64,000 nucleotides of DNA, from NCBI GenBank assembly GCA_964357615.1, contig CAYHMC010000007.1, forward strand, positions 4,896 through 68,895. The letters are read 5' to 3'. Under the pieces are notes generated by a model. The model saw only the letters and a list, made by a program, of their open reading frames with translations. It made no database searches and was not told where the DNA came from. Shown in pieces: positions 13,235 to 34,349 of this stretch. This DNA is from an uncultured Candidatus Saccharibacteria bacterium. GTDB lineage: Bacteria; Patescibacteriota; Minisyncoccia; UBA6257; JACOXY01. Each line of letters starts with the position of its first letter. Within the stretch, counting starts at the first letter, position 1. The position numbers were made by a program, and so were the translations under genes.

Positions 13235-13483
13235 AAATTTATAATTATTAACAATAATAAAATTTACGACCTTTAATGAATAAATTATTTAAGCCAACTT
13301 AAAATATAGATAAGTTGCCATATAAGTATTATATACTATATTACCTAAGATTTAATTAATACTGTGGATAAAAATTAAATAGAATAATTTTACAAATAAA
13401 AAACGCCGACCAGAAAATCAGCGCTTTTTATTTGTAATAAGTATTTCTTAGTTACTAACTTACCTAGCAATGAGCAATATATT

Positions 13484-14487: not shown

Positions 14488-14705
14488 AAATTATTTTAAT
14501 TATTTGCCGACCTTTTAAAGCCTACTCATTAATAGTAACTAAAAAACAGGCATTCGAGCAAATGTGGATAAGTCTTAGTAAGAACAGAGGGCGCTTAATC
14601 ATAAAAATAATATTTAAAAATATCTAAACAAATCCCAACAATAAGTTAAAAAAACAAACTGCTCCTTGCTATGTTTGTGGTGTGAGCTCTATCAAGATAA
14701 GTTTT

Positions 14706-15026
14706 TTAACCAGCAAACCCTCCACCCGTTATAAGCTCTATGATGAGAGTTGTTATGCCTTTTGATAAATATGCGGTTAGCACTGCTAAAACTGCATAGA
14801 CTAGGGCTCGATTGGCAGTTCTAACTTCTTCTGCATTAGCACCTGCGGTAGCATATTTGAATGCAGAGTAAATTACAGCAATTACAGAAAAAATAATTAG
14901 AGAAGTAAAAACGAAGGCAATGATTCTATCGAAAATTAATAAGACTCCCGCGGAATCAATGTTTGAAACTGATCCAGCTGGATCAACGCCACCGCCAACT
15001 GCTGATTGAGCTAAATATTTAAACAT
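14706..15026 (-). CDS. VirB2/TrbC-like pilin paralog 4 (divergent)
   Basis: 106 aa with two hydrophobic helices and the loop FKYATAGANAEEVRTAN. Gly-rich C-terminus ITGGGFAG. Confidence 0.5.
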   Translation of the reverse strand: MFKYLAQSAVGGGVDPAGSVSNIDSAGVLLIFDRIIAFVFTSLIIFSVIAVIYSAFKYATAGANAEEVRTANRALVYAVLAVLTAYLSKGITTLIIELITGGGFAG

Positions 15027-15035
15027 AATTATATT

Positions 15036-15425
15036 TTAACCAGCCGCAGCACCACCGCTAATTATTTCCCTTACCAAAGTTATTATTCCTTTAGAAACAA
15101 GCACTAATGCAAATCCAATAATTGCATACATTATTGATTTGCTTCCTCTCCTAAACTGCTCGGCATTGCCACCAGCTGTTAACATTTGAAAAGATCCGAT
15201 TAAAATCATAATAACGGCAATGGGGATAGATATGGTTACCAAAAAACCAATTGCAATATTAATAATATCAACCAAGTTTTTGTCGCCTACAGGATTGGGA
15301 ACAGGAATTACTCCACCAGGCACAATGTCGCCAGCCTGCGCGTATATAAAATTTATATTTATAAATCCAAAAAGCACAACGAAGCTAAGTATTTTTAAAC
15401 TATTCATTACTAATTTAGTATTCAT
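15036..15425 (-). CDS. VirB2/TrbC-like pilin paralog 5 (divergent)
   Basis: 129 aa. Signal/TM segment, then SFQMLTAGGNAEQFRRGSKSIMYAIIGFALVLV. C-terminus ISGGAAAG. Confidence 0.5.
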   Translation of the reverse strand: MNTKLVMNSLKILSFVVLFGFININFIYAQAGDIVPGGVIPVPNPVGDKNLVDIINIAIGFLVTISIPIAVIMILIGSFQMLTAGGNAEQFRRGSKSIMYAIIGFALVLVSKGIITLVREIISGGAAAG

Positions 15426-15465
15426 AAATAAAAGTGATTTAATATTATTCTTATATATTTTGATT

Positions 15466-15813
15466 CTAACTGCCAGTTATAAGTTCGCGAATAAGAGTAG
15501 TCGAACCTCTAGCAAGCAACACAAGAGCAAAACCAACTATCGAATAAATAACTGTTTTGGTGCCTTTCCTAAACTGCTCAGCATTACCACCGGATGTTAA
15601 CATTTGAAAAGCTCCAATTAAAACCATCAGCACTGTAATAGGAATGGATACGGTTACTAAAAAATCTATGACTCTATTAATTACATCACTTATGGTCCCA
15701 GAAAATGGGGAAGCGGTTATTATTGGCCCTTGTGCGCTTACTATACTTGCATCCAAAAAAACAATTACCACTAAATAATAAACCAGAAAAATCCCAAGCA
15801 TTTTTTTTAGCAT
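15466..15813 (-). CDS. VirB2/TrbC-like pilin paralog 6 (divergent)
   Basis: 115 aa. AFQMLTSGGNAEQFRKGTKTVIYSIVGFALVLLA. C-terminus ELITGS. Confidence 0.5.
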   Translation of the reverse strand: MLKKMLGIFLVYYLVVIVFLDASIVSAQGPIITASPFSGTISDVINRVIDFLVTVSIPITVLMVLIGAFQMLTSGGNAEQFRKGTKTVIYSIVGFALVLLARGSTTLIRELITGS

Positions 15814-15913
15814 ACGAATAAAAATATTAGATGGAAAAAATTAATCAATTAAAAACACTTATACAAATAAGCATATCAATAAAAATATCTAAATCAAAAT
15901 CTATATACTGATT

Positions 15914-16834
15914 CTAAAATCTTATATCCCAGTGATTCGTCTCTCTGGCGTAAATATGTCCGGTGTTAGTATCTCTATACAAGGTAGCACCATCACTTCT
16001 AATTCCAGTCCTAACAAATCCATTAGCACCATTCCCAGTATTTCCTGCAATAAAGTTATCCACACAACTTGATAGTCTAAAATCTAATTTATTTCCACTC
16101 TGATGAGAATTCGGTCCAGTCGCATGTCCACCAGAAACTTCCGTGCCTCCAGTTATAACAATAGGACATCCACTCCTACTCTGAAAACTAACTGCTCCAC
16201 TTTGCGCAGATGTCGACAAGCCATCCAAACAAGTTTGTGGGCAATCATTATTAACTGTAATTTTTCCTCCGCTTGCGCTTAGCAATTGGGCTCTTATTAA
16301 ATTGCTTGCAGCTACATCATTACCTGTTCTACTTGTTGGTTGGGGTGCCCTACTACTATTAGGCAAAACAACTCCACCAGGTCCATTTGATGCTGTTAAT
16401 GTTTCTTCGGGTGGACAATCAATTTGATTCCACGGCTTACCAGTTACATTGTTTACTACAAGTAAATAAAAAACTTGATTAATAATGAGCCAAGAAACGA
16501 GCATTAAAATAACTCCTACTATAGCCCCAGTAATGGCACTTCTGCCTTGTTGGATTTTAGAAGGCATAGCTCCACCCAGCATTATTTGTATAGCACCGTA
16601 AGTAATAACAAGAACTGCCAAGATGGCGCCCACCTCAATCATATAGTTTGTGACTGTTTTGATTGTGTTTAGTCCATCGCAGAGGGTGCAATACTTAGTT
16701 CCGGGAGGAAAACTCAATGTTCCATGACACTGGTCTGGATCTATAATAGAAAAAGCATTTGTTGTAAAAGGTAGGAAGATGAGAAAAAGAAGCGGGAGGA
16801 GGAGAATTTTATTTTTGAGAAATATATTTTGCAT
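15914..16834 (-). CDS. Fusion protein: pilin-like N-terminal module plus C-terminal putative peptidoglycan peptidase domain
   Basis: 306 aa. The N-terminal ~165 aa has a signal peptide and two hydrophobic helices with a GG-containing loop (IQIMLGGAMPSKIQQGRSA), as in the pilin paralogs. It is identical to the N-terminus of the 16930..17985 product. The C-terminal domain contains SHQSGNKLD, an HxxGxxxD spacing reminiscent of M15-type peptidases; this assignment is weak. Confidence 0.45.
   Translation of the reverse strand: MQNIFLKNKILLLPLLFLIFLPFTTNAFSIIDPDQCHGTLSFPPGTKYCTLCDGLNTIKTVTNYMIEVGAILAVLVITYGAIQIMLGGAMPSKIQQGRSAITGAIVGVILMLVSWLIINQVFYLLVVNNVTGKPWNQIDCPPEETLTASNGPGGVVLPNSSRAPQPTSRTGNDVAASNLIRAQLLSASGGKITVNNDCPQTCLDGLSTSAQSGAVSFQSRSGCPIVITGGTEVSGGHATGPNSHQSGNKLDFRLSSCVDNFIAGNTGNGANGFVRTGIRSDGATLYRDTNTGHIYARETNHWDIRF
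16345..16810. repeat. Approx. 470 bp direct repeat, copy 1, identical to about 17495-17960. Encodes the shared pilin-like N-terminal module.
   Basis: The sequences run identically through ...ttcttcgggtggacaatcaatttgattccacggcttaccagttacattgtttactacaag.... The encoded amino acids are identical from KILLLPLLFLIF to GGVVLP. Boundaries are estimated by eye. Confidence 0.75.
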
Positions 16835-16929
16835 GAATAATTCTCTTCAATTCTAACACAAAAGAGCTCGGAGAAATATCACGCGAAAATACTTATTAAA
16901 GAAAAATTCTAAATATATAAAATCAAAAC

Positions 16930-17985
16930 CTAAAAACATTTTCCAAAATTGCAGGCTTTGCCTTTTATAAAACAAGCATTATATCTTCCTTCTCCTGGCC
17001 TTATTGGACATCCCCATTTTGGAATTGCTGGCCATCCATCTGACACCTTACAATCAACGCTTGAGCCACTTTGTCTTATGCCAGCATTATAAATTGCGTA
17101 AGTTAATTCTTCGACAGTAGCGGCGTTTCCGTAGCGAGATTTTAGCGATTTTGCTGAGGAATATGCATCTGCCAAAACTTTGGTTCCTTGCTGAATATTT
17201 GTATCAGGATTTAATGAACAAGCACCGATTGGTTGCATTAAACCACAGCTTAATCCATCTACAGATCCAGCATTAGGATTACATCTAGACTCCATAGCAA
17301 TGATTGCCTTGATTAGAGATTCTGGAACATTGTATATGTCAGAATATTTAGCTATAGATGTTTGCCACGGTGAAGTATCGCATGTCGGACAAGACCCAAT
17401 ACCAGCGCATATTTGGCCACCACCAGAAAGCTGAGCTTTTGCAGCATTAACATCAGCACACGAATCTCCTCCGCCAGGAGGGGGACTACCGCCAGGCAAA
17501 ACAACTCCACCAGGTCCATTTGATGCTGTTAATGTTTCTTCGGGTGGACAATCAATTTGATTCCACGGCTTACCAGTTACATTGTTTACTACAAGTAAAT
17601 AAAAAACTTGATTAATAATGAGCCAAGAAACGAGCATTAAAATAACTCCTACTATAGCCCCAGTAATGGCACTTCTGCCTTGTTGGATTTTAGAAGGCAT
17701 AGCTCCACCCAGCATTATTTGTATAGCACCGTAAGTAATAACAAGAACTGCCAAGATGGCGCCCACCTCAATCATATAGTTTGTGACTGTTTTGATTGTG
17801 TTTAGTCCATCGCAGAGGGTGCAATACTTAGTTCCGGGAGGAAAACTCAATGTTCCATGACACTGGTCTGGATCTATAATAGAAAAAGCATTTGTTGTAA
17901 AAGGTAGGAAGATGAGAAAAAGAAGCGGGAGGAGGAGAATTTTATTTTTGCCTTTCATATATAAAATAAGTTTAACACAAAGCAA
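16930..17985 (-). CDS. Fusion protein: pilin-like N-terminal module plus C-terminal lytic transglycosylase (SLT, VirB1-like) domain
   Basis: 351 aa. The N-terminal module is identical to that of the 15914..16834 protein. The C-terminus contains AIIAMESRCNPNAGSVDGLSCGLMQP, the SLT-domain catalytic Glu-Ser and GLMQ motif. Confidence 0.6.
   Translation of the reverse strand: MLCVKLILYMKGKNKILLLPLLFLIFLPFTTNAFSIIDPDQCHGTLSFPPGTKYCTLCDGLNTIKTVTNYMIEVGAILAVLVITYGAIQIMLGGAMPSKIQQGRSAITGAIVGVILMLVSWLIINQVFYLLVVNNVTGKPWNQIDCPPEETLTASNGPGGVVLPGGSPPPGGGDSCADVNAAKAQLSGGGQICAGIGSCPTCDTSPWQTSIAKYSDIYNVPESLIKAIIAMESRCNPNAGSVDGLSCGLMQPIGACSLNPDTNIQQGTKVLADAYSSAKSLKSRYGNAATVEELTYAIYNAGIRQSGSSVDCKVSDGWPAIPKWGCPIRPGEGRYNACFIKGKACNFGKCF
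17495..17960. repeat. Approx. 470 bp direct repeat, copy 2, identical to 16345-16810
   Basis: See copy 1. Confidence 0.75.
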
Positions 17986-23132: not shown

Positions 23133-23475
23133 TTTTTTACAAACTGCTAACTTAAATTAAATAATAAATATTGAAGGAAATTATGCATAGCCTTTACGAT
23201 TTTATTATTTATCGTTACCAGTTATGAGTTATTCATTATACATTACCTTAATTAAACTTGCTTTTCAACTCAAAATGGCTTATAGTGACATTCAACTAGT
23301 TATTACTAGATTGTAAGTATATGGCTATATTTAGCTGAAAATCTAAATATCCATTTAATTTCCAAAGCGACTAGTATGATTAAATCGATTTAGATAAATT
23401 TAAATCGAACATTATTATTAATATTAATTTGGAATAAAAACGAAATTTAATTTATCGTTTTCTGTCTTTATAAAA

Positions 23476-24555
23476 ATGAAAACTTCATTCGCAGATTTTG
23501 TAAAAAATGACGCCACGGTGTTAAAGCTTCCTCGCGAAGGCGAAGTAGTAGATGGCATACTAATTGAAAAGAAACCACGCAGAGCTTATTTTAATTTAGG
23601 CACTCTTGGAACTGGAATAGTTTATGGTAGAGAATATTTAAATGCAAAAGAAATTATTAAGGGATTAGCTGTGGGAGATAAAATGAGCGCTAAAATATCT
23701 GCCGTTCAGAACGAAGATGGCTATGTAGAACTTTCACTTGGCGCAGCAAGCGAAGAAAAACAATGGGGTGGGGTTCAAGACCTTAAAGAATCTGGTGAAA
23801 TTATCACCCTAAAAATAACTGGGGCAAATAGCGGAGGTTTAATAGCTGATTTAAGCAACTTAAAAGCATTTTTACCTGTATCACAATTATCTAACGAACA
23901 TTATCCTAGAATTTCTGGTAGCGAGAATCAAAAAGAGGCCATATTAAAAGAGCTTAAGAAATTTACAGGACAGGAAATGCGAGTAAAAGTAATAGATGTA
24001 AATCCCAGAACTGAAAAACTTATTATTTCCGAGCGTGAAATTACAGATGAAAATGTCAAAGAATTACTTAAAAAATATACGGTAGGCGATATAGTCGATG
24101 GCATAGTATCGGGCGTTGCAGATTTTGGAGCCTTTGTTAAATTTGTTGACAATCCAGCAATTGAAGGACTTATTCACATCTCTGAACTTGATCATAAACT
24201 AATAGAAGGACCGAAAGATGTGGTTAAGGTTGACGACCCAGTAAGAGTAAAAATTATTGATATAAAAGATGGCAGGGTATTCTTGTCTCTCAAAGCCCTA
24301 AAAGCCGACCCATGGGCCACCATTGCAGAAAGATACAAAGAAGGAGCAGAAGTTTCTGGAAAAGTTAAAAAGTTTAACCCTTATGGTGCGTTTATAGACT
24401 TGGGCGACGGCGAAATTCAAGGCCTAATCCATGTTTCTGAATTTGGGGGAACAGAAGAAATGAAAAAAGTGTTAGAGCTTGGAAATACGTATAACTTCAC
24501 AATAACAACACTAAAACCAGAAGAGAAAAGATTGCTTCTTAAGATAAAAAAATAA
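23476..24555 (+). CDS. rpsA: 30S ribosomal protein S1 (short four-S1-domain form)
   Basis: 359 aa with four S1-like repeats. GEVVDGILIEK..., GEIITLKITGANSGGLIADL, VGDIVDGIVSGVADFGAFVKF...GLIHISEL, AEVSGKVKKFNPYGAFIDLGDGEIQGLIHVSEF. Confidence 0.8.
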   Translation: MKTSFADFVKNDATVLKLPREGEVVDGILIEKKPRRAYFNLGTLGTGIVYGREYLNAKEIIKGLAVGDKMSAKISAVQNEDGYVELSLGAASEEKQWGGVQDLKESGEIITLKITGANSGGLIADLSNLKAFLPVSQLSNEHYPRISGSENQKEAILKELKKFTGQEMRVKVIDVNPRTEKLIISEREITDENVKELLKKYTVGDIVDGIVSGVADFGAFVKFVDNPAIEGLIHISELDHKLIEGPKDVVKVDDPVRVKIIDIKDGRVFLSLKALKADPWATIAERYKEGAEVSGKVKKFNPYGAFIDLGDGEIQGLIHVSEFGGTEEMKKVLELGNTYNFTITTLKPEEKRLLLKIKK

Positions 24556-24584: not shown

Positions 24585-24612
24585 TCACGACTACCATGTC
24601 GTGTTTTTTTAT
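24585..24612 (+). terminator. Rho-independent terminator for rpsA
   Basis: Hairpin CACGAC-taccat-GTCGTG followed by TTTTTTTATTT. Confidence 0.6.
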
Positions 24613-24623
24613 TTAAATAAAAA

Positions 24624-24660
24624 AGGGAGGGTCGCACAGCGTACTGCTGTGTGCCCTCCC
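24624..24660 (-). terminator. Rho-independent terminator, minus strand, for the GC-rich gene 24682..25095
   Basis: Imperfect GC-rich hairpin GGGAGGGTCGCACAGC...GCTGTGTGCCCTCCC, followed on the minus strand by a T-run (complement of the aaaaaa stretch at about 24610-24622). Confidence 0.5.
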
Positions 24661-24681
24661 TGTGAATCAGAAACCCACTGA

Positions 24682-25095
24682 CTAGGCGGAGAAGAGTGCT
24701 TCGACTTCGTTCGCCTCGGTCACGCGACCCTGCGACCCCACGGTCGAAGTCTCGAGATCGGCGATCGCAAGACGAAGTCGCGCAATCTCGACTTCGGTCT
24801 CACGCTTCTCCTCGGCGTTCTGGGCTTGGAGCGAATCCTCGTTGACTCGGAGCTTGGCTGCGTCGGAGGCCACGGTGTTCTCGAGTCCGAGGACACCAAC
24901 CACGACACCCATGACAGCGCCAACTTGCTCTGGAGTGCTCGCGAACTTGGAAGTCGCGATTGCCTTCGCCAGGTCGAACACCATCGGCTTGGGCAACTTG
25001 ATCGACTCCTTGCCGGTTTTGATGCCGACCGCGAAAGTAAGTAGCGTCATCCCGATGAAAATCACTGTCCCGATGAAAATCGTGGGCATATCCAT
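24682..25095 (-). CDS. GC-rich foreign-looking gene: small N-terminally membrane-anchored protein with C-terminal coiled coil. The track ORF extends to 25140; the likely start is the ATG at 25095, preceded by an AAGGAGAG Shine-Dalgarno.
   Basis: Product MDMPTIFIGTVIFIGMTLLTFAVGIK...EIARLRLAIADLETSTVGSQ. Codon third positions are overwhelmingly G/C. GC is far above the surrounding genome. Confidence 0.55.
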   Translation of the reverse strand: MDMPTIFIGTVIFIGMTLLTFAVGIKTGKESIKLPKPMVFDLAKAIATSKFASTPEQVGAVMGVVVGVLGLENTVASDAAKLRVNEDSLQAQNAEEKRETEVEIARLRLAIADLETSTVGSQGRVTEANEVEALFSA

Positions 25096-25422
25096 TTGGT
25101 TCTCTCCTTTTCTTTGAGGGCTTCTGTGCCCTGGTCGCACTTTGAGGCTTTTGGAGCCTCCTAATCTCTTGCTTTTTTAATTATAGCATTTTTTCATGAA
25201 TTTGTCAATATTGAGTAACATTATCTTTATATAAAGGCTTTTATACTTGCTCATTTCAACAAATTACATAGCTATACAATAGAAATAGCTTATATGTCTG
25301 TGGAAAAAGACTGAATTTCTCTTATCAAACGCGATTTTTATGCTTAAAATACTACTAATTTTATACTATGACCCCCTTTTTAGAAGTCGCTATGACGCGA
25401 AGAACCCCTGCTTCTATCGGGG

Positions 25423-25451
25423 TTGACAAAAAGCTATTTTTTTGCTATAAT
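25423..25451 (+). promoter_or_regulatory. Consensus sigma70 promoter: TTGACA, 17-nt spacer, TATAAT
   Basis: ggTTGACAaaaagctatttttttgcTATAATgg lies about 110 nt upstream of the ATG at 25561, which has an AAGGAGA Shine-Dalgarno. Confidence 0.65.
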
Positions 25452-25560
25452 GGCCCCAGAACATAACGATCCTAACGGCTAGCTCTTCTTCTAGAGTTGC
25501 ATTGGTTGCAGCTCGAGAGCCTTAGTCTTAAGGACAAAACAACAAGAGAAGGAGAATTTC

Positions 25561-26478
25561 ATGACTCGAAACACGCGCAGTAGTAAGAGTTCCCGCGAAC
25601 AGCACGTGGACGCGAACTTCGACGGCGACCACAAGAAGGCCGAAGCGACCGAGCGACACGAAAAGGAAGGCACCTTCACCGGTGTCCACATCCACTTCGG
25701 CGTCGGTGTCTACGAAGGCCATGCCGACGAGAACACCGAGGTCAAGGAAGCTTGGCGCTTGAAGAAGTACGGCTTCGCGACCGTTCGGGCTCTCGCCGTC
25801 AACTTCGGCAAGATGATCGACGCTGGCACGATGGCCGCCGGCAAGCCGTGTGGTCGGTGTGGCGACTACGTTCCGGGCGACATCAACTCGCTCGAGACGC
25901 TCGAGACGCTGGTCACGATGGCGGTCAACTACGCGCAGAATCGTCCGATCACCAAGGACGAGTGCAACGAAGTCCTCGCCGAAGTCCGGGTCACCCTCGG
26001 TAAGCAGGCCAAGATGAACTCCCGGCTGTCCTTCGACGATCTCGTCGAGCGCTTCACGGCGGTGGACAACGAGGTCTTCGCCGTCAGCCACTCCGCAGTG
26101 GCGAACACCATCGACTACCGCAAGTACGTCGAGACGGTGGAGGCGGTGGAAGAGGAGTGTCTCACGCGTGTTCGCGACAACCTCGTGAACGGAATTCGTG
26201 AGCTCGCCGACGACCTCGGTGGCGAGAAGAAAACCGTCGTTCTCACGGCGGTCGAGCGTATCTTGGCGGAGGAGAGCAATCTCCGTCGTCAGATCGGTGC
26301 GCTCATGGCCGAGCGTCTGCAGTGTCGCCAGGCCGGCGCGAAGTACGCATCGCAGCGTGCGGACGAGCGCGCGTCGGAAGGTCGGCGCGAGCAACGCTTC
26401 ACCCCCCGTCAGGGACGGGGTCGGGGTCGAGGAACCCACGGTGGCGGTCGCTACCAGGCGCGGAGCGCCCAGCAGTAA
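25561..26478 (+). CDS. GC-rich foreign-looking gene: hypothetical protein with C-terminal RG/RGG-rich tail
   Basis: 305 aa. Strong RBS and GC3-rich codons. The C-terminus RFTPRQGRGRGRGTHGGGRYQARSAQQ is a possible nucleic-acid-binding tail. The antisense 303-aa ORF (25528..26439) is the expected spurious open frame of high-GC DNA. Confidence 0.6.
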   Translation: MTRNTRSSKSSREQHVDANFDGDHKKAEATERHEKEGTFTGVHIHFGVGVYEGHADENTEVKEAWRLKKYGFATVRALAVNFGKMIDAGTMAAGKPCGRCGDYVPGDINSLETLETLVTMAVNYAQNRPITKDECNEVLAEVRVTLGKQAKMNSRLSFDDLVERFTAVDNEVFAVSHSAVANTIDYRKYVETVEAVEEECLTRVRDNLVNGIRELADDLGGEKKTVVLTAVERILAEESNLRRQIGALMAERLQCRQAGAKYASQRADERASEGRREQRFTPRQGRGRGRGTHGGGRYQARSAQQ

Positions 26479-26512
26479 ACTAGGTACCTCGCCTAGTAGC
26501 AGTTGATGCGAA

Positions 26513-26564
26513 GGGGAGGCAGTAAGTTTCTAGCGCAAGCTAGAGCCTGCCTCCCCCTTTTTTT
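26513..26564 (+). terminator. Rho-independent terminator
   Basis: GGGGAGGCAG ... CTGCCTCCCC stem followed by TTTTTTT. Confidence 0.65.
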
Positions 26565-26910
26565 AAGAATTTTTAATTTTTGAATTTTTAAAAAAGGGAG
26601 TTAAGTCTCACAAGCTTAAAGTAATTCTGGATTTAATAGACCCTTTGCGCAATTAATTTCGTAGCGAGAATTCTGGATTTTCTGCGAGGCGAAGTAAAAA
26701 TTTTGAAGGTGTATACAAAGTTATACTTCAAGAAATTTTTACAAAGCCGTAGCTAAAATATGGAATTCGTTGTAGAAAAGTAATTGTGCAAAAGGTCTAA
26801 TATATTAGTTTGCGCTTGTGAAACTTGACAATCCCCATTCATTTTACGAAGGGACACAAACGCAGAAAAACCAGAAACAAAACTCGTAGCAAAGAGAGGA
26901 GAGAGTTCTG

Positions 26911-28359
26911 ATGATTTACACTATGCTTGGAGAAGATACCAGAGCTCCTGGAGGACCAGGCGCAACTTGCCATCTTCTGGAGTTGGCTGGAAAGACACTG
27001 GTAATAGATTGCGGTCTTAGATTTGAAAAGACGAGAGATGAAGAGAAAGTTTCTCTCGGCCCAGATCTTTCTAAAATCAAGAATAAAAGGGTAGATGCTG
27101 CATTCATTACGCATCTTCACCTTGACCACATGGGATGCTTCCCTGTATTTACAAGAGAACATCCAGATACGCCAATCTTTGCATCATGGCCAACCGCCCA
27201 CGGACTTCACATTCCAATCGAAGACACACTGAAGATTGGCCGGAGAGCGGAGCGTTGCGCCAGATTTTCTGGCAAAGATTATACCCCTCCGTTATATACG
27301 GCGGGAGATGCACATCGCTTTATGAATATGATTAATCCAGTCGATTGTCCGACATGGATGAATTTTATGGATTGGCCAGGCTGGCAAGTTGGGTTCTATC
27401 CAGCCGGTCACACCATAGGCGCAATGAGCATTTATATTGACTCTCCGGAAGGGCATTTCGTTATTACTGGCGATTGTTCGGCTCATAGCCAACCAATCAC
27501 TAGTGGAGTCCTTATTCCTCCCGCTGGATTCTTGGGAGAATTCATAAGTGAGTCTGCAAAAAGCAAATCGGGTCTCACGATTATTACCGAGGCCACGAAT
27601 GGTGCACGCACGCTTCCCGATATGTTGGCGCAGGAATCCGCAATGATTGCGGCATGTTCCGCAGCCAAAAATCGTGGTGGAGTTGCGATGCTTCATTCTT
27701 TTGCAGAAGGGCGCTCTGCTAATAATGCCATGCGCCTTGCCCCACATTTTCCAGTTCATATTGACGGACTGGCACGAGATTGGTGGCGCTTCTATGAAAG
27801 CGAAGACAGTTGCTGGGATGCCGGCGACGAAGAGCGCGCATTGATGATGCGCAAACTTCGCGAAGAAGGTCGCATCATCTTAATAGAAGGCACGAGTCGC
27901 GAAGACACAGAAGAACATCGCTTAAATCTCGCACTTGGAATGGATAGGTGCGGTAAAGAGGAATTCTCGCCGATTATTACACCAGCGGCAACTCTAGAGT
28001 CTGGCACAGCAATTTTCTATGGCCAGCATATTCTACGCAATAGAGATAATGTAGTCATCTCAACCGGACATCGCTTTCCGGACACCCCAGGAGATGCAAT
28101 CTTTAATGTAGAGAAGGGGCTAACAGTGAAGCTGGGCGAAGAGCATGTACCAGTCTCCTGCGAAACAGCTCACTTCGACTTCTCTGCTCACGATGGCGGA
28201 GACATACTCGCAAAGCGATGTGAAATCCTCGGAGCGAATCGAGTAATCATGCATCATGGTGATGACCGAAATCTCAGAGGCCTAGAAAATCGCCTTCTCT
28301 CGCTTACAAATCCTCCCGAAATCGCTTGGGGAAGATATGGAATTGTTTTTGAATTTTGA
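26911..28359 (+). CDS. Beta-CASP family metallo-beta-lactamase-fold nuclease (RNase J/CPSF-like)
   Basis: 482 aa. LVIDCG, THLHLDHMG (the HxHxDH motif), AGHTIGA, ITGDCS, and a C-terminal VIMHHGD beta-CASP histidine motif. GC is intermediate (about 45-50 percent by eye), above the genome background. Confidence 0.7.
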   Translation: MIYTMLGEDTRAPGGPGATCHLLELAGKTLVIDCGLRFEKTRDEEKVSLGPDLSKIKNKRVDAAFITHLHLDHMGCFPVFTREHPDTPIFASWPTAHGLHIPIEDTLKIGRRAERCARFSGKDYTPPLYTAGDAHRFMNMINPVDCPTWMNFMDWPGWQVGFYPAGHTIGAMSIYIDSPEGHFVITGDCSAHSQPITSGVLIPPAGFLGEFISESAKSKSGLTIITEATNGARTLPDMLAQESAMIAACSAAKNRGGVAMLHSFAEGRSANNAMRLAPHFPVHIDGLARDWWRFYESEDSCWDAGDEERALMMRKLREEGRIILIEGTSREDTEEHRLNLALGMDRCGKEEFSPIITPAATLESGTAIFYGQHILRNRDNVVISTGHRFPDTPGDAIFNVEKGLTVKLGEEHVPVSCETAHFDFSAHDGGDILAKRCEILGANRVIMHHGDDRNLRGLENRLLSLTNPPEIAWGRYGIVFEF

Positions 28360-28378
28360 TTTTTAGAAAATTACACGA

Positions 28379-28432
28379 CCACCCGACATTATTAGCGTTA
28401 TGCTAAATCACTCGGGTGGATTTTTTATTTTT
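28379..28432 (+). terminator. Rho-independent terminator
   Basis: CCACCCGA ... TCGGGTGG stem with a long loop, followed by TTTTTTATTTTT. Confidence 0.5.
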
Positions 28433-28512
28433 ATATACACATATAATCAAATAATATCTATTTGACACATATTGTTTATTATGGTAGAAAAAGACCAGAA
28501 AGAGAGGTTCCA

Positions 28513-29400
28513 ATGGAACAGAAAGCATTGCTAGACCCAAACAGTCGAAGCACAAAAGCCAGAGACAGAACATCATCTGGCCTCGCTGCCGCCATCAAAA
28601 CGGTGCGAGAAGAAGATGCAACTTTTAGCAGTATCAGACCACTTATTGGACTAGAAAAACTGCATATTCTTGTGGTTAGTAATAACAATTACAAAGATCA
28701 GGGGCGAGAATCAAATTTCGGAACATCCGATTATGGGAAACCTGCGGGAGTTGGTTTTCCGACTGGCGGTAGCGAAGCTCAAGAAGCAACAGAGCACGCC
28801 GCCGAAAGAGAAACTGCTTTCGAAAGTGGATTTCCTGTAAACCATACCATTCGCTTTATGGAAGAATATACAAACCTAAAGCGAGACCGAAGAATTGGCA
28901 TGGAAAAATATCATCCTCATTTTCTATACCTAATCGATGTCGACTCCGATTATGTTGGTCCTATTAGAGAGAAAAAAGAAATTAAGTGGGCCAAGTGGAT
29001 TACTTTTTGCGAAATTGTTGAGCGTCTAAAGCTTGGACAGAAGGCGCTTAAACTTATGCAAGAAAATCGATCGAATAAGTATAATAATCCAGAAGCATTC
29101 TACTTTAGTCATGCTAATAATTTTCTAATTCCTTTTTTTCTAAGTGTCTATTATATGACCGAAGAAGAAATTGATGAGATTACGAATAATCGTTATAGGA
29201 ATTGGATTAAGCGCTTTCGTCCTTATATTGTTCAGGAGATTGACGACCATGCCGAAGAGTTAATTGACCTCAGGCTAATGGATTGTGTCACAAATTCCGA
29301 AGATAACGGAACCGAAGAAACGATGAGTGATACTGGTGAATCGCCCAGCGAAAACAATAATTTCCCGCTTGAAATGTTCTGTGACATGTTTAACGACTAA
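28513..29400 (+). CDS. NUDIX hydrolase domain protein. The track ORF begins at TTG 28462; the preferred start is ATG 28513 with an AGAGAGG Shine-Dalgarno.
   Basis: GFPTGGSEAQEATEHAAERETAFESGF matches the Nudix box GX5EX7REUXEEXGU at all spacing positions except one (F for the first E of EE). A C-terminal acidic extension follows. Confidence 0.65.
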   Translation: MEQKALLDPNSRSTKARDRTSSGLAAAIKTVREEDATFSSIRPLIGLEKLHILVVSNNNYKDQGRESNFGTSDYGKPAGVGFPTGGSEAQEATEHAAERETAFESGFPVNHTIRFMEEYTNLKRDRRIGMEKYHPHFLYLIDVDSDYVGPIREKKEIKWAKWITFCEIVERLKLGQKALKLMQENRSNKYNNPEAFYFSHANNFLIPFFLSVYYMTEEEIDEITNNRYRNWIKRFRPYIVQEIDDHAEELIDLRLMDCVTNSEDNGTEETMSDTGESPSENNNFPLEMFCDMFND

Positions 29401-29416
29401 CAACCACCATATACAT

Positions 29417-29445
29417 GCTCTGCACTTTGCAGAGCTCTTTTTATT
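29417..29445 (+). terminator. Rho-independent terminator
   Basis: GCTCTGCA-ctt-TGCAGAGC followed by TCTTTTTATTT. Confidence 0.7.
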
Positions 29446-29518
29446 TCTTATTTAAAAACTCTCGCCATAAAACACGATATAAATTTAAAAACTACTAATA
29501 AAAACCATTAAAAAAAAT

Positions 29519-29546
29519 TTTACATAATGTGTTATCGTGGTACAAT
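29519..29546 (+). promoter_or_regulatory. Sigma70-like promoter with extended -10: TTTACA, 16-nt spacer, TGgTACAAT
   Basis: Located 28 nt upstream of the ftsH ATG at 29574. Confidence 0.5.
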
Positions 29547-29573
29547 GTTTGTAATAACCTTAAAAATAAATCT

Positions 29574-31436
29574 ATGAAAACTCCACTTATTAAAAAGCCC
29601 TCTCTTTTAAAACAAGCTGGAATGGCTTTTGGTATTTTTATAATAACTTTATCAATATTTTCGATGATTATGGAACAAGGAAAAGTTCCAGAAAAAATAT
29701 CTCTTGGTGAGTTAGTGAAAAGAGTTGAACAAGGAAAAATAGTTAAAGTGGCAATTTTAGGAAATGAACTAAATGCATTTATTCCAGAAAACAAAAGCGA
29801 TATTCCAGATGCCACATCTAAAAAAGAGCCTGGGGTAAGCATTACGGAAGTTTTTCAAAATTATGGAGTTGATTTAAAAACAGCAAACATAGAATTAGTA
29901 GTTGAAGACGAATCTCAGCTTTCTTTTTGGATGGGAAACCTTGCGCTTACCATATTACCCTTCCTTCTTATAGCTGGATTTTTTTGGTGGATGACACGAC
30001 AAGCAAGAGGGGGAATTAACCAGGCTTTTACTTTTGGAAAATCCAGCGCAAAACTTTTTGCTTCATTTAAAGATAAAATTACTTTCAAAGATGTTGCTGG
30101 GTTAAAAGAAGCCAAACAAGAGCTTGAAGAAATAATAGATTTTCTTAAAAATCCGAAAAAGTTTTTAGACATTGGCGCAAAAATTCCACGAGGCGTTCTT
30201 CTTATGGGACCACCTGGAACTGGAAAAACTCTAGTAGCAAGGGCCGTTGCTGGCGAAGCTAATGTTCCTTTCTTTTATATGTCAGCTTCAGAGTTTGTAG
30301 AAATGTTTGTTGGAGTGGGCGCATCTCGCGTTAGAGACCTTTTTGATACTGCAAAAAAATCTTCGCCTTCAATTATATTTATAGATGAAATCGATGCCGT
30401 GGGACGAGAAAGAGGGGCGGGACTAGGAGGTGGACACGACGAAAGAGAGCAAACACTAAATCAAATACTCGTTGAAATGGATGGCTTTGAGAGAGATACT
30501 CGCGTAATAGTTATAGCGGCAACAAACAGGCCCGATGTGCTAGACTCTGCGCTTCTTAGACCAGGAAGATTCGACAGGCGAGTAGTATTAGACCTTCCTG
30601 ACATAAATGATAGAGAGGCAATTTTACACATTCATGCAAAAGGAAAAATTTTAGATCAAGATGTTGATTTGCGACGAGTGGCTGTGCGCACTCCTGGTTT
30701 TTCAGGTGCTGACCTTGCAAACCTAATGAATGAAGCGGCAATTTTTACAGCGCGTGAAAATAAAAAAACAATTGCACAAATATATATTTTAGATGCGATT
30801 GAAAAAGTTATTCTTGGACCAGAGAGGAAGGGACGAGCAATACTTCAAAAAGAAAAAGAGATTACTGCCTATCATGAAGCTGGGCATGCATTGGTTGCAG
30901 CCTCTCTAAAAGATGCTGACCCCGTACAAAAAGTTTCAATTATTAGTCGTGGACGAGCGGGTGGCTACACACTAAAACTTCCTCTTGAAGAAAGACGCCT
31001 AAAAACAAAAAATCAATTTATTGCAGATTTATCGGTGGCTCTTGGAGGTTATGTTTCCGAACAATCAACTTTCGGAGATATAACAACTGGTTCTTCAAGT
31101 GATTTGAAAGAGGCATCGGAACTCGCACGATTACTTGTTACTAGGTATGGCATGTCTAATCTTGGCCCGCTTACTTACGGCAAACACCATGAAACAATTT
31201 TTATTGGTCGTGAAATTAATGCAGAAAGAGATTTTTCTGAAAAAACAGCGCAAGATATTGATAGCGAGGTTTCTAACATAATGAAGTCAGCCTACGATTT
31301 AGCAAAAAAAGTAATTACAAAACACAAAACAGCGCTTAAGGCAATTGCGGACACTTTAATTGAACACGAAACTTTAGAGCATGAAGCTTTTTATGCGCTC
31401 CTCAAAAGATTCAACCTAAAACCAATGGCGGTATAA
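29574..31436 (+). CDS. ftsH: ATP-dependent zinc metalloprotease FtsH
   Basis: MKTPLIKK... start with two N-terminal TM segments. Walker [10 protein letters not shown], Walker [11 protein letters not shown], second region of homology, and the HEAGHALVA zinc motif. The track start at 29529 would add an implausible 15-aa extension overlapping the promoter. Confidence 0.95.
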
Positions 31437-31455
31437 TGCGCAAACTTTAGGATTT

Positions 31456-31491
31456 AAAAATCCACCAAATACCTTGGTGGATTTTTATTTT
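31456..31491 (+). terminator. Rho-independent terminator for ftsH
   Basis: AAAAATCCACCAA-atacc-TTGGTGGATTTTT followed by ATTTT. Confidence 0.7.
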
Positions 31492-31580
31492 AATATTTGA
31501 ATATAAAATAGTAGGAGCCTCAATCATTGTTTTGCCTTGGCATTGTTTTTTATTATTTTTTCGGTATAATTTTTGAAAAT

Positions 31581-31653
31581 GCGCCTGTAGCTTAGTGGCT
31601 AAAGCACCGAGCTTATACCTCGGGGATCGATGGTTCGAGTCCATCCAGGCGCA
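31581..31653 (+). tRNA. tRNA-Ile, anticodon TAT (UAU)
   Basis: 73-nt cloverleaf. Acceptor GCGCCTG/CAGGCGC, D-arm GCTT-AGTGGCTA-AAGC, anticodon stem CCGAG/CTCGG with loop CTTATAC, T-arm GATGG-TTCGAGT-CCATC. Discriminator A. A TATAAT box sits 10 nt upstream. Confidence 0.7.
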
Positions 31654-31686
31654 CACTTCGGCAAGCTTAGTGCGAGCCAAAGTTAT

Positions 31687-31762
31687 GCGCGCTTAACTCA
31701 GTGGCCAGAGTGCCTCCTTTACACGGAGGAAGCCGGGGGTTCAAATCCCTCAGCGCGCACCA
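31687..31762 (+). tRNA. tRNA-Val, anticodon TAC, with encoded CCA
   Basis: Acceptor GCGCGCT/AGCGCGC, D-arm ACTC-AGTGGCCA-GAGT, anticodon stem CCTCC/GGAGG with loop TTTACAC, T-arm GGGGG-TTCAAAT-CCCTC. Ends ACCA. Confidence 0.8.
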
Positions 31763-31832
31763 AATAAATCCAAATAAATAAAGATAATTTTTATTAAATT
31801 GACAGCGGGTAAATATATTATATACTAGCTTT

Positions 31833-32102
31833 ATGAACGAAAGTGAATTAAAAAGTGCTTTAACTAAACTTATTTCAGAGTCTTCATTATCTCCAGAGGA
31901 CAAAGATCTTTGGAATAAATCACTAGAAAACTCTCCTTTTGAGATAATGCTTGCTGTTCATTCATTTCTCATTGATTATGGTGGTAAATTACAAGAAGCA
32001 ACCAACTTTTTAAAACGAAAAATTTCTGCAATTAATAGCAAAGACTCATCGGCATGGAACGGCATTCTAAAAGATGAGGATTTATTCTTAAATCAAAATT
32101 AA
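31833..32102 (+). CDS. Hypothetical small protein
   Basis: 89 aa, hydrophilic, no recognised family. Confidence 0.3.
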   Translation: MNESELKSALTKLISESSLSPEDKDLWNKSLENSPFEIMLAVHSFLIDYGGKLQEATNFLKRKISAINSKDSSAWNGILKDEDLFLNQN

Positions 32103-32110
32103 TTTTAATT

Positions 32111-33091
32111 ATGGCAGAACCAAAATTTGAAGGATTAGAACCTGAAACAAACAACGAAGAAACTGTCGAAGGCACAGCTAGTTTAGCTAACCCAGAAAAA
32201 AAAGCTCAGCAATTCACTCTAGAGGGAACAGCTGAAATGAATGCTGACATAGCACCAGAAGCATTCCAAGATGCAGTTGCAGAGTCAGCAGAAATGCAAA
32301 CAGAAAGAGCTTCAAAAGAAGGTGGTAAAAGACGCGTTGGTAGAGTGGCAATGGCCGCGCTTTCACTAATGGCGTTAATGATGATTACGCCAATGGATGT
32401 AGACGCTGGGGGAGGCAAACACAATCGAGAAGGACAACGAACTGAAAATATTAATACTAATAACTACAACTACAAATCTACTACCAGAGTAGAATATGGC
32501 CAGAGAGATTCATGGAAACGAGTGGGAATGGATGCAGCTAGAATGGGCATTGCAAGAGTTATGGGTGGCGGAGGACCAGTAGTATACGGTGGTGGCGGAG
32601 GGGGAAGAATGCTTGCGGGTGGTGTGTGGGTAGACGGACCAACAACTATTTATGAATCGAATATGGAACGCGCAAGAACTGACGCCATGAGAATAGGAGC
32701 TGAAGTTGAAAAAGCTAGAATTGAAGCGCAGGCTGCTATTGAGATAGAAAAAATTCGCGCTGGCAAAGGTTCTCCCCAAGGCGTTGAATTTGTTGAACGC
32801 GGAAATGCCGATGCTCCCAATCAAGATAATAACGCACACGAAGCAGCGCCAGAAAGACAGTCCGACGACGAAAGAGCAGTAGACATGGAACGCACTTATG
32901 ACGCAGGCGTTAAAGATGGTCTACAAGAAATTGCAATGGCGAAAAACTATGGCGGCGAACATCCAGTTATGACAAAAGGAAGATGGGAGCAAATTTTATC
33001 AGCGAATCAAAATAATAGAGATGCTGATAGTTACTATAAGGGATTTTTATATTCTTGGTCTACAGCTGGAGGAATTATTGATATAAAATAA
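32111..33091 (+). CDS. Hypothetical Gly-rich protein
   Basis: 326 aa. An acidic N-terminus is followed by a hydrophobic segment (VAMAALSLMALMMITP), poly-Gly stretches (MGGGGPVVYGGGGGGRMLAGG) and charged repeats. GC is noticeably higher than neighbouring genes. Confidence 0.4.
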   Translation: MAEPKFEGLEPETNNEETVEGTASLANPEKKAQQFTLEGTAEMNADIAPEAFQDAVAESAEMQTERASKEGGKRRVGRVAMAALSLMALMMITPMDVDAGGGKHNREGQRTENINTNNYNYKSTTRVEYGQRDSWKRVGMDAARMGIARVMGGGGPVVYGGGGGGRMLAGGVWVDGPTTIYESNMERARTDAMRIGAEVEKARIEAQAAIEIEKIRAGKGSPQGVEFVERGNADAPNQDNNAHEAAPERQSDDERAVDMERTYDAGVKDGLQEIAMAKNYGGEHPVMTKGRWEQILSANQNNRDADSYYKGFLYSWSTAGGIIDIK

Positions 33092-33130
33092 TATGTAGTA
33101 TGTACCAGATTTGAACCCAGTATATTAAAA

Positions 33131-33439
33131 ATGTCTAAAACACTTTATAAGCTTCTATCAGTATTATCGATCATTCCATTAGTTGGGACATTTCTATACT
33201 GGCAATCACTCGACGGATGGTCTGGATTGGGTGGATTTTTTTTATTTGGGTTTGTAGCACTTTTTTCTGCAATATTATCGGGGGTAATTGGGTTTTTAGG
33301 ATTGCAATTAATAATTAGAACAAAAAAACGCAACGAAAATATTGGTTCGCTATTATTTTATACAGTAATTGCATTTACTCCAGCTATACTAACAATTGTT
33401 TTATCAATCCATACATACTTAGGTAGTATTTTGTATTGA
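33131..33439 (+). CDS. Hypothetical small polytopic membrane protein
   Basis: 102 aa with three predicted TM helices. Confidence 0.4.
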   Translation: MSKTLYKLLSVLSIIPLVGTFLYWQSLDGWSGLGGFFLFGFVALFSAILSGVIGFLGLQLIIRTKKRNENIGSLLFYTVIAFTPAILTIVLSIHTYLGSILY

Positions 33440-33446
33440 TAACACA

Positions 33447-34349
33447 TTACGACCTTCTTCTGCCATGAAAAGTTTTATGAATCTCTTTTAGTTCTTTATT
33501 TGTAACATGAGTATATATTTGCGTTGTAGAAATATTTGCATGACCAAGTAGCGCCTGCACGGAACGAAGGTCGGCCCCATTCATTAATAAATCAGTGGCA
33601 AATGCATGTCGCATCATGTGTGGTGTTACATGGTCTTGTATTCCAGCTTTCCTCGCATAATGGTCTATCATTCTCTGAACAGACCTTGAGGATACCCTGC
33701 CAGTAGAAACTTCCTTCTTTTTTAGCGGATTGCCAGATGCAAAACTAACAAATAGTGCTTCCTCGGCATCAACTCGCTTAGCTAAATAATTTTTTACAGC
33801 AGTCACTGCTCGTGGAGAAAAAAAGACAACACGAATTTTTTCTCCCTTACCCCTGACGCTAATTTCGCCTCTTTCTAAATTTAGATATCTGTTTAGTGCA
33901 CACAATTCAGAAATACGAAGTCCGGTTGAAAAAAAAGTTTCGAGTATTGCTCTATCCCGTAATCCTCGCAATGTTTTGGTGTCAGGCGCATTCATTAATC
34001 TCTCTATATCACTACTTTCTGGAATTTCTATCTGACGCGAAGGAGTTCTGGGAAGCTCTATTTTATCTGGCGATAAAACTTCGAGATCTCTTTTTATTAA
34101 AAACTTCAAATAATTTCTGATTGATATAATATAATAGCTTTGCGTATTTTTCTTAATATTCCTGCGAGCTAAATTTAAACGAAATTCTCGCACAACACTT
34201 TCAGTAATATCACCCACATTTTTAATTTTTTGAACATCAAAAAAAACTTTTAAGTAACGCTCATAATTTTCGCGAGTTTTTATAGAGCGATTTTTTTCTA
34301 TTTCTAAATAATTTAAATACTCAATTAAATATTTTTGTACTTCGGTCAT
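33447..34349 (-). CDS. Site-specific tyrosine recombinase, XerC/XerD/integrase family
   Basis: 300 aa. An N-terminal SAM-like core-binding domain (YLNYLEIEKNRSIKTRENYERYLKVFF) precedes a C-terminal catalytic region: RGKGEKIRVV, HMMRHAFATDLLMNGADLRSVQALLGHANISTTQIYTHV. These supply the R, H-x-x-R and Y residues. Confidence 0.85.
   Translation of the reverse strand: MTEVQKYLIEYLNYLEIEKNRSIKTRENYERYLKVFFDVQKIKNVGDITESVVREFRLNLARRNIKKNTQSYYIISIRNYLKFLIKRDLEVLSPDKIELPRTPSRQIEIPESSDIERLMNAPDTKTLRGLRDRAILETFFSTGLRISELCALNRYLNLERGEISVRGKGEKIRVVFFSPRAVTAVKNYLAKRVDAEEALFVSFASGNPLKKKEVSTGRVSSRSVQRMIDHYARKAGIQDHVTPHMMRHAFATDLLMNGADLRSVQALLGHANISTTQIYTHVTNKELKEIHKTFHGRRRS

Follow-up and report, generated by a model that had tools for sequence, protein, structure and literature searches.

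Our analysis implies that ORF2, a GC-rich gene in an AT-rich genome of the candidate phyla radiation (CPR), is old, syntenic and GC-rich in every lineage in which it was found, and that something besides ancestry therefore holds the GC content of its third codon positions (GC3) at about 0.8 amid values of 0.2-0.5. The gene lies in a 64,000-nt stretch of contig CAYHMC010000007.1 (assembly GCA_964357615.1), called the window throughout, in which two divergent open reading frames (ORFs), ORF1 and ORF2, stand between rpsA, the gene of ribosomal protein S1, and ftsH. ORF2 appears to be a gene of Parcubacteria (Paceibacteria-type CPR) that is lineage-restricted and evolves very fast, and not a fresh import. 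The explanation that we tentatively prefer is that it encodes a highly expressed protein with a nucleic-acid-binding tail, and that selection, probably acting on the messenger RNA (mRNA), preserves its GC-rich coding sequence. The genome is deposited as Saccharibacteria, but judged by its genes it is a CPR genome of the Parcubacteria/Paceibacteria type, because two relatives of ORF2 are labelled Liptonbacteria and Wolfebacteria and the nearest labelled rpsA loci belong to metagenome-assembled genomes (MAGs) of the Parcubacteria group and of Liptonbacteria.

The compositional break is sharp. The window has 36.6% GC, with a standard deviation (sd) of 6.0% and a maximum of 64.6% among 500-bp intervals, and intervals above 52% GC occur solely at 25.5-26.5 kb. 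An earlier note on this DNA had described by eye a jump in GC across the two ORFs and third codon positions that are mostly G or C, and the recalculated values bear out both observations: ORF1 has 58.5% GC (.61/.41/.74 at codon positions 1/2/3) and ORF2 has 63.3% (.66/.44/.80). Across 35 other ORFs of the window, each at least 200 aa long, GC3 is 0.26 (sd 0.04, maximum 0.41), which makes both genes atypical for the host and places ORF2 about 13 sd above the other ORFs. Codon choice in ORF2 nearly inverts that of the background. AAG is chosen 15 times out of 16 (19% in the background), CTC 13 times out of 18 (6%) and CAG 11 times out of 12, and AGA and AGG, which make up 58% of the background arginine codons, are absent.

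An exhaustive HMMER search of 1.84 billion cluster representatives returned six true relatives of ORF2 (P0003, P0005, P0006, P0007, P0008 and P0009), with E values of 2e-47 to 2e-5, lengths of 248-288 aa and 25-44% identity to ORF2. A seventh was found with the family hidden Markov model in locus L004, the nearest relative (E 1.6e-17). A word-indexed protein search found only the query itself with ORF2 and recovered only P0009 with the family profile. All relatives lie on AT-rich contigs with CPR-like gene content. The homologue is sited after rpsA in L004, L086 and L089, the S1 proteins of which are 71-82% identical to that of the window, so the presence of ORF2 is not patchy among these loci; ORF1 is absent from all three. 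In the distant relatives L009, L010 and L012 rpsA is followed directly by ftsH (gap of 80-870 nt), and the 5 kb between these two genes in the window therefore represent a lineage-specific insertion slot. Within this variable slot ORF2 may form a module with a beta-CASP ribonuclease, elsewhere with an unrelated partner X, and with a NUDIX hydrolase.

The GC richness is a property of the whole family. The gene is GC-rich in 8/8 independent lineages (GC 54-68%, GC3 0.60-0.83), and the mean GC3 of the flanking ORFs is 0.21-0.49. In the four syntenic genomes rpsA has a GC3 of about 0.26-0.49 versus 0.71-0.83 in the family gene a few hundred bases away. The S1 proteins of these genomes are 70-82% identical, with a third-position identity of 0.39-0.47; in the ORF2 family this value is 0.35-0.46. 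Synonymous sites are thus saturated, and therefore the GC3 of each gene is its own equilibrium, which a donor imprint cannot explain. By region, GC is.31-.38 in the promoter,.36-.46 in the 5' untranslated region (5'UTR) and.50-.70 in the coding sequence, and returns to background downstream. The imprint of a donor is further disfavoured because it would have ameliorated and would not end at the boundaries of the coding sequence. The GC content of about 60% would accordingly be a conserved equilibrium property of the coding sequence, held in at least eight lineages.

The regulatory design is conserved as well. The space between ORF1 and ORF2 measures 465 bp; it had been described as an AT-rich region of 300 bp, of which the AT-richness stands (31-37% GC in the core) and the length does not. 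It holds two perfect TTGACA-17-TATAAT promoters, one per gene and both TG-extended; the 64 kb contain no other 12/12 match. The AAGGAG Shine-Dalgarno sequences and hairpin terminators attributed to both genes from the letters alone were likewise recovered (Table 1). A perfect promoter is present in five of the seven family members with upstream sequence (ORF2, L004, L089, L090 and L093) and an 11/12 match in L084. The 5'UTRs of the family measure 85-180 nt, an AGGAG-type Shine-Dalgarno sequence is found in six of these seven members, and a GC hairpin with a T-run follows the stop codon in 8/8. Sequence blocks (...GCTGCAATGGTTGC...) are common to the 5'UTRs of the window (25458-25560), L004 (12582-12705) and L089 (6699-6813), and a further block reads TCTAAAGGACTAACCCCC in L004 and L089 and TCTTAAGGACAAAA in the window. 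In the former two it runs into a stem-loop immediately before the Shine-Dalgarno sequence, with weak covariation support; a conserved 5'UTR structure was rejected, with just six weak pairs. No Rfam match reached the gathering score, the best one below it being osmY in the 5'UTR of ORF2 (25.6 vs 46.9). Because the promoter, Shine-Dalgarno and terminator signals follow the consensus, transcription of ORF2 is expected to be very high. A perfect sigma-70 promoter with extended -10, some 100 nt of 5'UTR, a consensus Shine-Dalgarno sequence and a strong terminator make the gene look as if built for maximal expression as a monocistronic unit.

The product of ORF2 has no transmembrane segment and is probably cytoplasmic. 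Its core is acidic and its C-terminus is an RGRGRG tail (isoelectric point 11.9), which agrees with the first description of a 305-aa protein with such a tail. The AlphaFold2 (AF2) model shows a small alpha/beta domain at the N-terminus, which includes a hairpin, then a helical bundle and finally a disordered basic tail rich in arginine and glycine (RG). The confidence of this model rose from a predicted local distance difference test score (pLDDT) of 44 to 81 (predicted template modelling score 0.60) once the seven-sequence family alignment was supplied. The tail probably binds nucleic acid. RGR repeats occur in the window protein and P0005 and are not conserved family-wide, and neither is the CxxC at residues 97-100. 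No known family was found for ORF2 in Pfam, PHROGs, NCBIfam, PADLOC or the PDB by sequence and fold searches, and the fold search gave nothing beyond generic three-helix bundles. The gene is nevertheless protein-coding, and the view that it is functional gains from conservation at the protein level, the confident AF2 model and a nucleotide identity in the family that is higher at codon positions 1 and 2 than at position 3. Additionally, the first 60 nt are GC-poorer than the rest of the gene in 6/6 members tested (of eight), as expected near a translated start.

The mRNAs of the family are about twice as stable as those of ordinary genes, with a minimum free energy (MFE) of about -0.37 to -0.65 kcal/mol per nt versus about -0.2. 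Compared with synonymous shuffles, the MFE z-scores are negative in 8/8 members (-1.2 to -13.3), four of them at -6 to -13, and the controls range from +1.7 to -5.8. In L084 (3029-3883), L093 (10001-10756) and L094 (34-780) the coding sequence holds 6-7 perfect local hairpins of 7-15 bp versus 0.6-1.4 expected; these members have z-scores between -7 and -13, with an MFE of -0.65 kcal/mol per nt in L094. Translational selection is unlikely as the cause of the GC richness, because the preference for the G-ending codons AAG, CAG and GAG is as strong as that for C-ending ones and rpsA lacks such a bias.

Selection on the transcript would be the most likely cause. We propose that a GC-rich, base-paired mRNA could escape RNA decay or binding that is directed at AU-rich and single-stranded RNA. 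The proposal draws on the mRNA structure, the RG-rich tail and the neighbouring genes for two presumed RNA enzymes, the beta-CASP protein and the NUDIX hydrolase. The pathway evaded is possibly the one encoded next door, in which case the coding sequence would have been recoded for self-avoidance. A DNA-level version, which stands on the same footing as the RNA one, would be that an abundant protein binds AT-rich DNA and that its own gene must stay unbound.

Both versions have partial precedents. Transcripts that lack ACA escape MazF and are thus toxin-resistant, self-avoiding mRNAs. The recoding proposed for ORF2 would similarly let its own transcript evade a nuclease or binder specific for sequence or composition. 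However, single short motifs are avoided in the case of MazF, whereas the whole coding sequence of ORF2 is shifted by 25 GC points, amino acids included. Nucleoid proteins of the H-NS/Lsr2 type combine a helical oligomerisation domain with an "AT-hook-like" RGR motif for binding AT-rich DNA, and in E. coli rpsA is followed by the nucleoid protein gene ihfB. ORF2 is similar in having a helical bundle and a flexible basic tail of RGR repeats, and its promoter suggests an abundant product; it differs in that PDB sequence and fold searches gave no sequence or fold similarity to these proteins, and in that RGR is not a family trait. A described precedent for such a conserved GC-rich coding island was not found in literature searches.

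Several points weigh against the reading of ORF2 as a highly expressed gene kept GC-rich by selection on its mRNA. The high expression is read from consensus signals, and the binding of nucleic acid is read from the tail of a protein whose fold search returned generic bundles. The mRNA of ORF2 in the window has a z-score of -2.1, which is within the control range, and one perfect hairpin versus 0.7 expected, so that hairpin enrichment was rejected for this gene and is confined to L084, L093 and L094. The window gene being unremarkable, the RNA-level argument draws on composition and on the more extreme relatives. The amino-acid composition of the family is GC-shifted, with glycine, alanine, arginine and proline at.27-.40 versus.15-.25 in the flanks, and neutral GC pressure or a foreign origin would give the same shift. 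The tree of the family disagrees with that of S1 (window and L086 are 43% identical in the family protein and 71% in S1, window and L004 26% and 81%), and lateral replacement of the ORF2 family among CPR is possible. Detection bias may also play a part, as a GC-rich query favours relatives that are GC-rich and rich in these four amino acids, and AT-rich ones could be missed. There is also a weak similarity between residues 23-106 of ORF2 (window 25627-25878) and the repeat unit of a protein from a marine bacterium with 59% GC: P0004, a 1401-aa protein on a marine metagenome contig (L098), shows 29% identity over 85 aa, repeated 4-5 times, which could be chance or an ancient domain link. Finally, ORF1 is without relatives that would date its arrival at the locus.

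A bolder form of the preferred explanation, which we consider doubtful but worth stating, is that Parcubacteria hold a whole class of cassettes with coding sequences actively kept GC-rich, each with a perfect promoter, a long UTR, a strong terminator and a fast-evolving protein with a basic tail. In such cassettes the function would reside in the GC richness as such. The transcripts of such cassettes might be immune to AU-directed decay or silencing by their own module (the beta-CASP ribonuclease or partner X, the NUDIX hydrolase and the RG-tail protein); alternatively, an unknown gene-specific mechanism might maintain their GC content. The slot repeatedly hosts GC-rich, fast-evolving genes, of which ORF1 is another example. 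Three JGI loci were retrieved via partner X alone (L095, L096 and L097; L096 is the same strain as L090). In L095 and L097 one gene beside X is GC-rich (GC3 0.65 and 0.83) and its product has an RG-rich or basic tail, and L095 shares the promoter, UTR and terminator design of the ORF2 family; homology of these two genes to the family was examined by hmmsearch and hhalign and rejected. In L011, a Jorgensenbacteria MAG, a perfect promoter directly after rpsA precedes a 338-aa ORF (9767-10878; GC 0.54 vs 0.43) with a basic tail rich in K, G and P, which may be a positional analogue of ORF2 with no detectable homology to it.

One could argue that the slot is old and the copies in it are young, i.e. 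that GC-rich genes are recurrently imported or replaced by alleles from an unsampled GC-rich pool among CPR, such as a plasmid or virus, via homologous recombination in the flanks. The incongruent family tree would fit, and so would a divergence that is extreme compared with the neighbours: between L004 and L089 partner X is 66% identical and the family gene about 28%. Unrelated GC-rich genes also occupy equivalent positions in L095, L097 and L011, in addition to ORF1. However, no such element was found in pattern scans of IMG/VR or in phage and plasmid searches, the GC tract ends at coding boundaries, and the same regulatory design recurs in the different contexts of L090 and L093. The AT-rich promoter and UTR are conserved together with the coding sequence in the window, L004 and L089; therefore the whole cassette was inherited together. 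Recurrent import is thus an unlikely explanation.

A neutral local process could also raise the GC content, either GC-biased gene conversion (gBGC) at a recombination hot spot or transcription-coupled repair of GC-to-AT lesions in a unit transcribed at extreme levels. Perfect promoters imply extreme transcription, and of the 17 found in about 1.3 Mb of fetched loci seven precede sequence at least 9 points GC-richer than the own locus. All three codon positions and the amino acids are shifted, as directional mutation pressure predicts, and fast, incongruent evolution fits frequent recombination. Contrastingly, the 5'UTRs are transcribed too and remain at.36-.46 GC, the boundaries match the coding sequence, and rpsA, normally well expressed, is at background GC3. 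In three members hairpins are enriched more than codon composition explains, which points to selection. The GC3 shift of +0.3 to +0.55 is, to our knowledge, far beyond the reported effects of gBGC in bacteria. We therefore rate the neutral process as quite unlikely.

The earlier note had read the composition as pointing to acquisition of the two genes from a high-GC donor, with the actinobacterial host as an obvious candidate if the bacterium is an episymbiont; as a recent event, in which the host or its phage left an un-ameliorated imprint, this origin is very unlikely and for ORF2 largely refuted. The GC values and codon table of ORF2 do resemble those of a gene from a genome of about 63% GC, and the GC-shifted amino-acid composition would agree with this. 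Moreover, the rpsA-ftsH slot is variable and holds toxin-antitoxin or defence-like genes in relatives, relatives of ORF1 were found nowhere, and a weak local similarity links ORF2 to the protein of the 59%-GC bacterium. However, no homologue was found in a high-GC organism, phage or plasmid (1.84 billion representatives, IMG/VR, INPHARED and PLSDB), and pattern scans of JGI metagenomes and IMG/VR with the alignment of ORF2 and P0003, phage tblastn and plasmid blastn were negative. The relatives that do exist sit in AT-rich, CPR-like contexts, at the same locus, and all are GC-rich despite saturated synonymous sites. Two separate GC-rich coding blocks are split by a native-like AT-rich control region, the promoter and UTR of which are conserved with those of the homologues. 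There is no tRNA gene within 5 kb and no integrase-like Pfam match among the neighbours scanned. The genome is that of a Parcubacterium, and we know of no established actinobacterial host for Parcubacteria; with no actinobacterial, phage or plasmid matches, the host as donor finds no support.

Two further signs of mobility were considered and set aside. A 12-nt flanking direct repeat (D20) was a candidate target-site duplication, but it lies within terminator A-runs at about chance expectation. The reading as an integron cassette was rejected, as no attC-like core site was seen by eye in the 3' hairpin and the UTR was co-inherited with the coding sequence; integron integrase was not searched. 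Acquired genomic islands, for which Lawrence and Ochman reportedly gave the amelioration model of compositional outliers, share with the locus of ORF2 a sharp compositional break, orphan genes and a variable slot. They differ from it in that here the anomaly is kept across eight lineages and affects coding sequences only, the regulatory DNA being AT-rich and native-like, and in that the searched databases hold no donor lineage and the locus lacks mobility genes and att-like repeats. It is routine to take compositional outliers as evidence of horizontal transfer and, in CPR, as a hint at the host. This inference fails for ORF2, which calls for caution in inferring CPR hosts from GC islands.

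It is highly improbable that the annotated ORF is incidental and that the GC-rich stretch represents a large, structured non-coding RNA or conceals an overlapping second gene. GC-rich islands in AT-rich genomes often mark structured RNAs. Such islands resemble ORF2 in being GC-rich transcribed blocks with a strong promoter and terminator, and several family members are packed with hairpins and have strongly negative MFE z-scores. However, ORF2 is clearly protein-coding and has no Rfam family match. The frame is open over 248-308 aa in 8/8 members with the pattern GC3 > GC1 > GC2, a Shine-Dalgarno sequence and start codon are present in 7/8 members (all with an available 5' end), amino-acid conservation reaches a HMMER E value of 2e-47 at 44% identity, the AF2 confidence depends on the family alignment, and nucleotide identity is lower at third positions. 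As to a hidden gene, stops in the "+3" frame of ORF2 and seven homologues are depleted (39 observed versus 73 expected from synonymous shuffling; ratio of about 0.89 in ordinary window genes), but an overlapping gene there is unlikely, since the open stretches fall at no consistent alignment position. The antisense 303-aa ORF at 25528-26439 is a by-product of codon composition, as 200/200 synonymous shuffles stay open over the same length.

The chance that foreign high-GC reads were joined into a CPR contig is negligible: two independent short-read assemblies end inside ORF2 (~25.70-25.75 kb, roughly 4x coverage), but the same assemblies span both AT/GC junctions at 99.95-100% identity, the frame of ORF2 stays intact and full-length homologues align across the break, and the AT-GC-AT architecture is seen again in unrelated studies and samples. 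The contigs, which come from independent assemblies of Hainich groundwater (ENA ERZ1292624 contigs 4170 and 7164; Logan assembly of ERR3858121), thereby exclude the chimera that the earlier note had proposed to check for. ENA contig L001 corresponds to window 25751 down to 17494 (99.95% identity), Logan contig L002 to 25699 down to 22823 (100%) and ENA contig L003 to 25723-33893 (99.99%). The short-read contigs break at no other place, and the two ENA contigs overlap there by 29 nt. Hainich groundwater assemblies also code for the exact protein of ORF1 and for the beta-CASP protein next to it.

ORF2 would offer a clean natural system for gene-by-gene base composition in bacteria if its GC content is due to transcript-level selection or to a locally acting GC-biased process. 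It also flags a probably abundant, uncharacterised protein with RNA-enzyme neighbours in a major uncultured group. The combination of a perfect promoter, a GC-rich coding sequence and a strong terminator may serve as a signature for finding similar genes. Should the cassettes turn out to be a class, compositional recoding as self-immunity would be a new principle, and the protein family and module would be new as well.

Table 1. Features of the rpsA-ftsH region of the window and gene order at loci with relatives of ORF2 (FAM, gene of the ORF2 family; X, partner X; hyp, hypothetical gene; MBL, metallo-beta-lactamase gene).
Feature	Position	Strand	Remarks
rpsA (ribosomal protein S1)	23476..24555	+	conserved left anchor; Pfam S1 E 5e-39; GC3 0.26
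rpsA terminator	24586-24603		small; own terminator of rpsA
ORF1 intrinsic terminator	24626..24661	-	GC-rich hairpin then U6; -27.6 kcal/mol, z -5.9
ORF1	24682..25095	-	137 aa; N-terminal transmembrane helix, then acidic helical C-terminal part
ORF1 5'UTR	25096..25173	-	~50% GC; AAGGAG Shine-Dalgarno
ORF1 promoter	25180..25208	-	TTGACA-17-TGcTATAAT, 12/12
Shared AT-rich control region between the divergent promoters	25209..25422	.	GC 0.31-0.37; small palindrome 25263-25280
ORF2 promoter	25423..25451	+	TTGACA-17-TGcTATAAT, 12/12
ORF2 5'UTR	25458..25560	+	~103 nt, 43% GC; ends in AAGGAG Shine-Dalgarno
ORF2	25561..26478	+	305 aa, 63.3% GC, GC3 0.80
ORF2 intrinsic terminator	26513..26564	+	hairpin then U7; -30.4 kcal/mol, z -4.1
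Beta-CASP metallo-beta-lactamase ribonuclease, putative (CPSF73/Ysh1/TTHA0252-like)	26911..28359	+	downstream partner kept in L084, L094
NUDIX hydrolase	28462..29400	+	Pfam NUDIX E 6e-8; kept in L004, L084
ftsH	29529..31436	+	conserved right anchor; Pfam
Loci L086 (P0003, labelled Liptonbacteria) and L089			gyrA-hyp-MBL-rpsA-...-FAM-X
Locus L004			rpsA-AbiEii-DUF6922-FAM-X-NUDIX-ftsH
Locus L084			HepT/MNT-278aa-FAM-betaCASP-NUDIX
Locus L094			FAM-betaCASP
Locus L090 (protein cluster labelled Wolfebacteria)			FAM-X-ftsH
Locus L093 (30%-GC genome)			MazE-FAM-...-ParE

The gene order in the window is gyrA, a hypothetical gene and an MBL gene (all on the minus strand), rpsA, ORF1 and ORF2, the beta-CASP gene, the NUDIX gene and ftsH. 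The protein of the beta-CASP gene passes the Pfam cut-off for Lactamase_B (E 2.5e-14) and falls just below it for Beta-Casp (8e-5) and RMMBL (1e-3). It matches CPSF3, TTHA0252 and Ysh1 in the PDB at E 1e-13, in the case of Ysh1 over residues 16-464 (E 4e-13), and its NCBIfam matches to aCPSF1, Cas14 and RNase J are all below the cut-off (aCPSF1 72 vs 580). With MBL, beta-CASP and RMMBL parts and full-length similarity, its sequence qualifies it as a beta-CASP ribonuclease, to which the NCBIfam scores assign no subfamily. The best family match of the NUDIX protein is weak (TIGR02705, the YtkD/RppH type; E 1e-3, 18.6 bits versus a cut-off of 154). PADLOC gave no match for ORF1, ORF2, the NUDIX protein or partner X, and a weak LmuA-like match only for the MBL protein. 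Partner X is a family of 257-341 aa with no Pfam or PDB match. Some neighbours are also elevated in GC: the beta-CASP gene itself has 48% GC and a GC3 of 0.41 versus 0.26, and the partner X genes of L004, L086 and L089 have a GC3 of 0.52-0.66.

Beta-CASP ribonucleases (RNase J, CPSF73 and TTHA0252) and NUDIX hydrolases of the RppH/YtkD type are two activities that act together in 5'-end-dependent RNA decay of the Bacillus type. The region downstream of ORF2 resembles such a decay module in having a full-length CPSF73/Ysh1/TTHA0252-like beta-CASP enzyme and a NUDIX hydrolase just downstream. It differs in that the NUDIX and beta-CASP matches are far below the family cut-offs and in that the ribonuclease is replaced by the unrelated partner X in four lineages; a functional link of the module to ORF2 is at most presumed. 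The stretch between the ORF2 terminator and the beta-CASP gene (26600-26880) contains nested inverted repeats, of 26 nt with 81% complementarity and of 16 nt with 94%, as well as a long AT-rich hairpin; it could represent a structured leader or else a small mobile element.

ORF1 is, as first described, a membrane-anchored protein, and like ORF2 it fits no known family: searches of Pfam, PHROGs, NCBIfam, PADLOC and the PDB and a phage tblastn gave no match. A word-indexed search of 5.8 billion proteins returned only ORF1 itself, and no relative was seen in the fetched loci, including L004, L086 and L089, so by sequence ORF1 is a true orphan. With no relatives at all, it may or may not be a recent arrival by transfer. 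Divergent from ORF2 and with an identical promoter design, ORF1 probably joined the slot of ORF2 as a lineage-specific, co-regulated gene.

Other GC-rich islands, 600-800 bp long, lie just upstream of rpsA in L083 (9048-9900, after a perfect promoter) and L077 (9200-9800); they contain no coding-like ORF and have no Rfam match, and they may be unknown non-coding RNAs. The gyrA genes of L086 (2662-6960) and L089 (44-3847) contain inteins, of the LAGLIDADG type by Pfam, and the ftsH gene of L004 (16668-19817) has an intein-like insertion of about 1.1 kb, as judged from a split alignment; gyrA and ftsH of the window are intein-free. GC skew and gene orientation switch at 23133-23475, a spacer of 22.7% GC between the MBL gene (-) and rpsA (+), where the cumulative skew has its minimum, and the island thus lies about 1.2 kb from a possible replication origin. 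A scan found no cluster of DnaA boxes at this switch; perfect boxes occur at 8786, 13363, 14563 and 16056.

Elsewhere in the window, positions 12885-17985 hold an array of T4SS-pilin (PF18895) paralogues, the copy number of which differs between L001 and the window (L001 1-8258 corresponds to 25751-17494 and 7802-11070 to 16817-13549). The region 8583-11229 is very AT-rich (24.8% GC over 8-10 kb), has no ORF of at least 100 aa and holds only tRNA-Leu (10927-11009). A tRNA-Ile with a UAU anticodon at 31581-31654 adjoins tRNA-Val(UAC) and represents an unusual route to reading AUA without lysidine.

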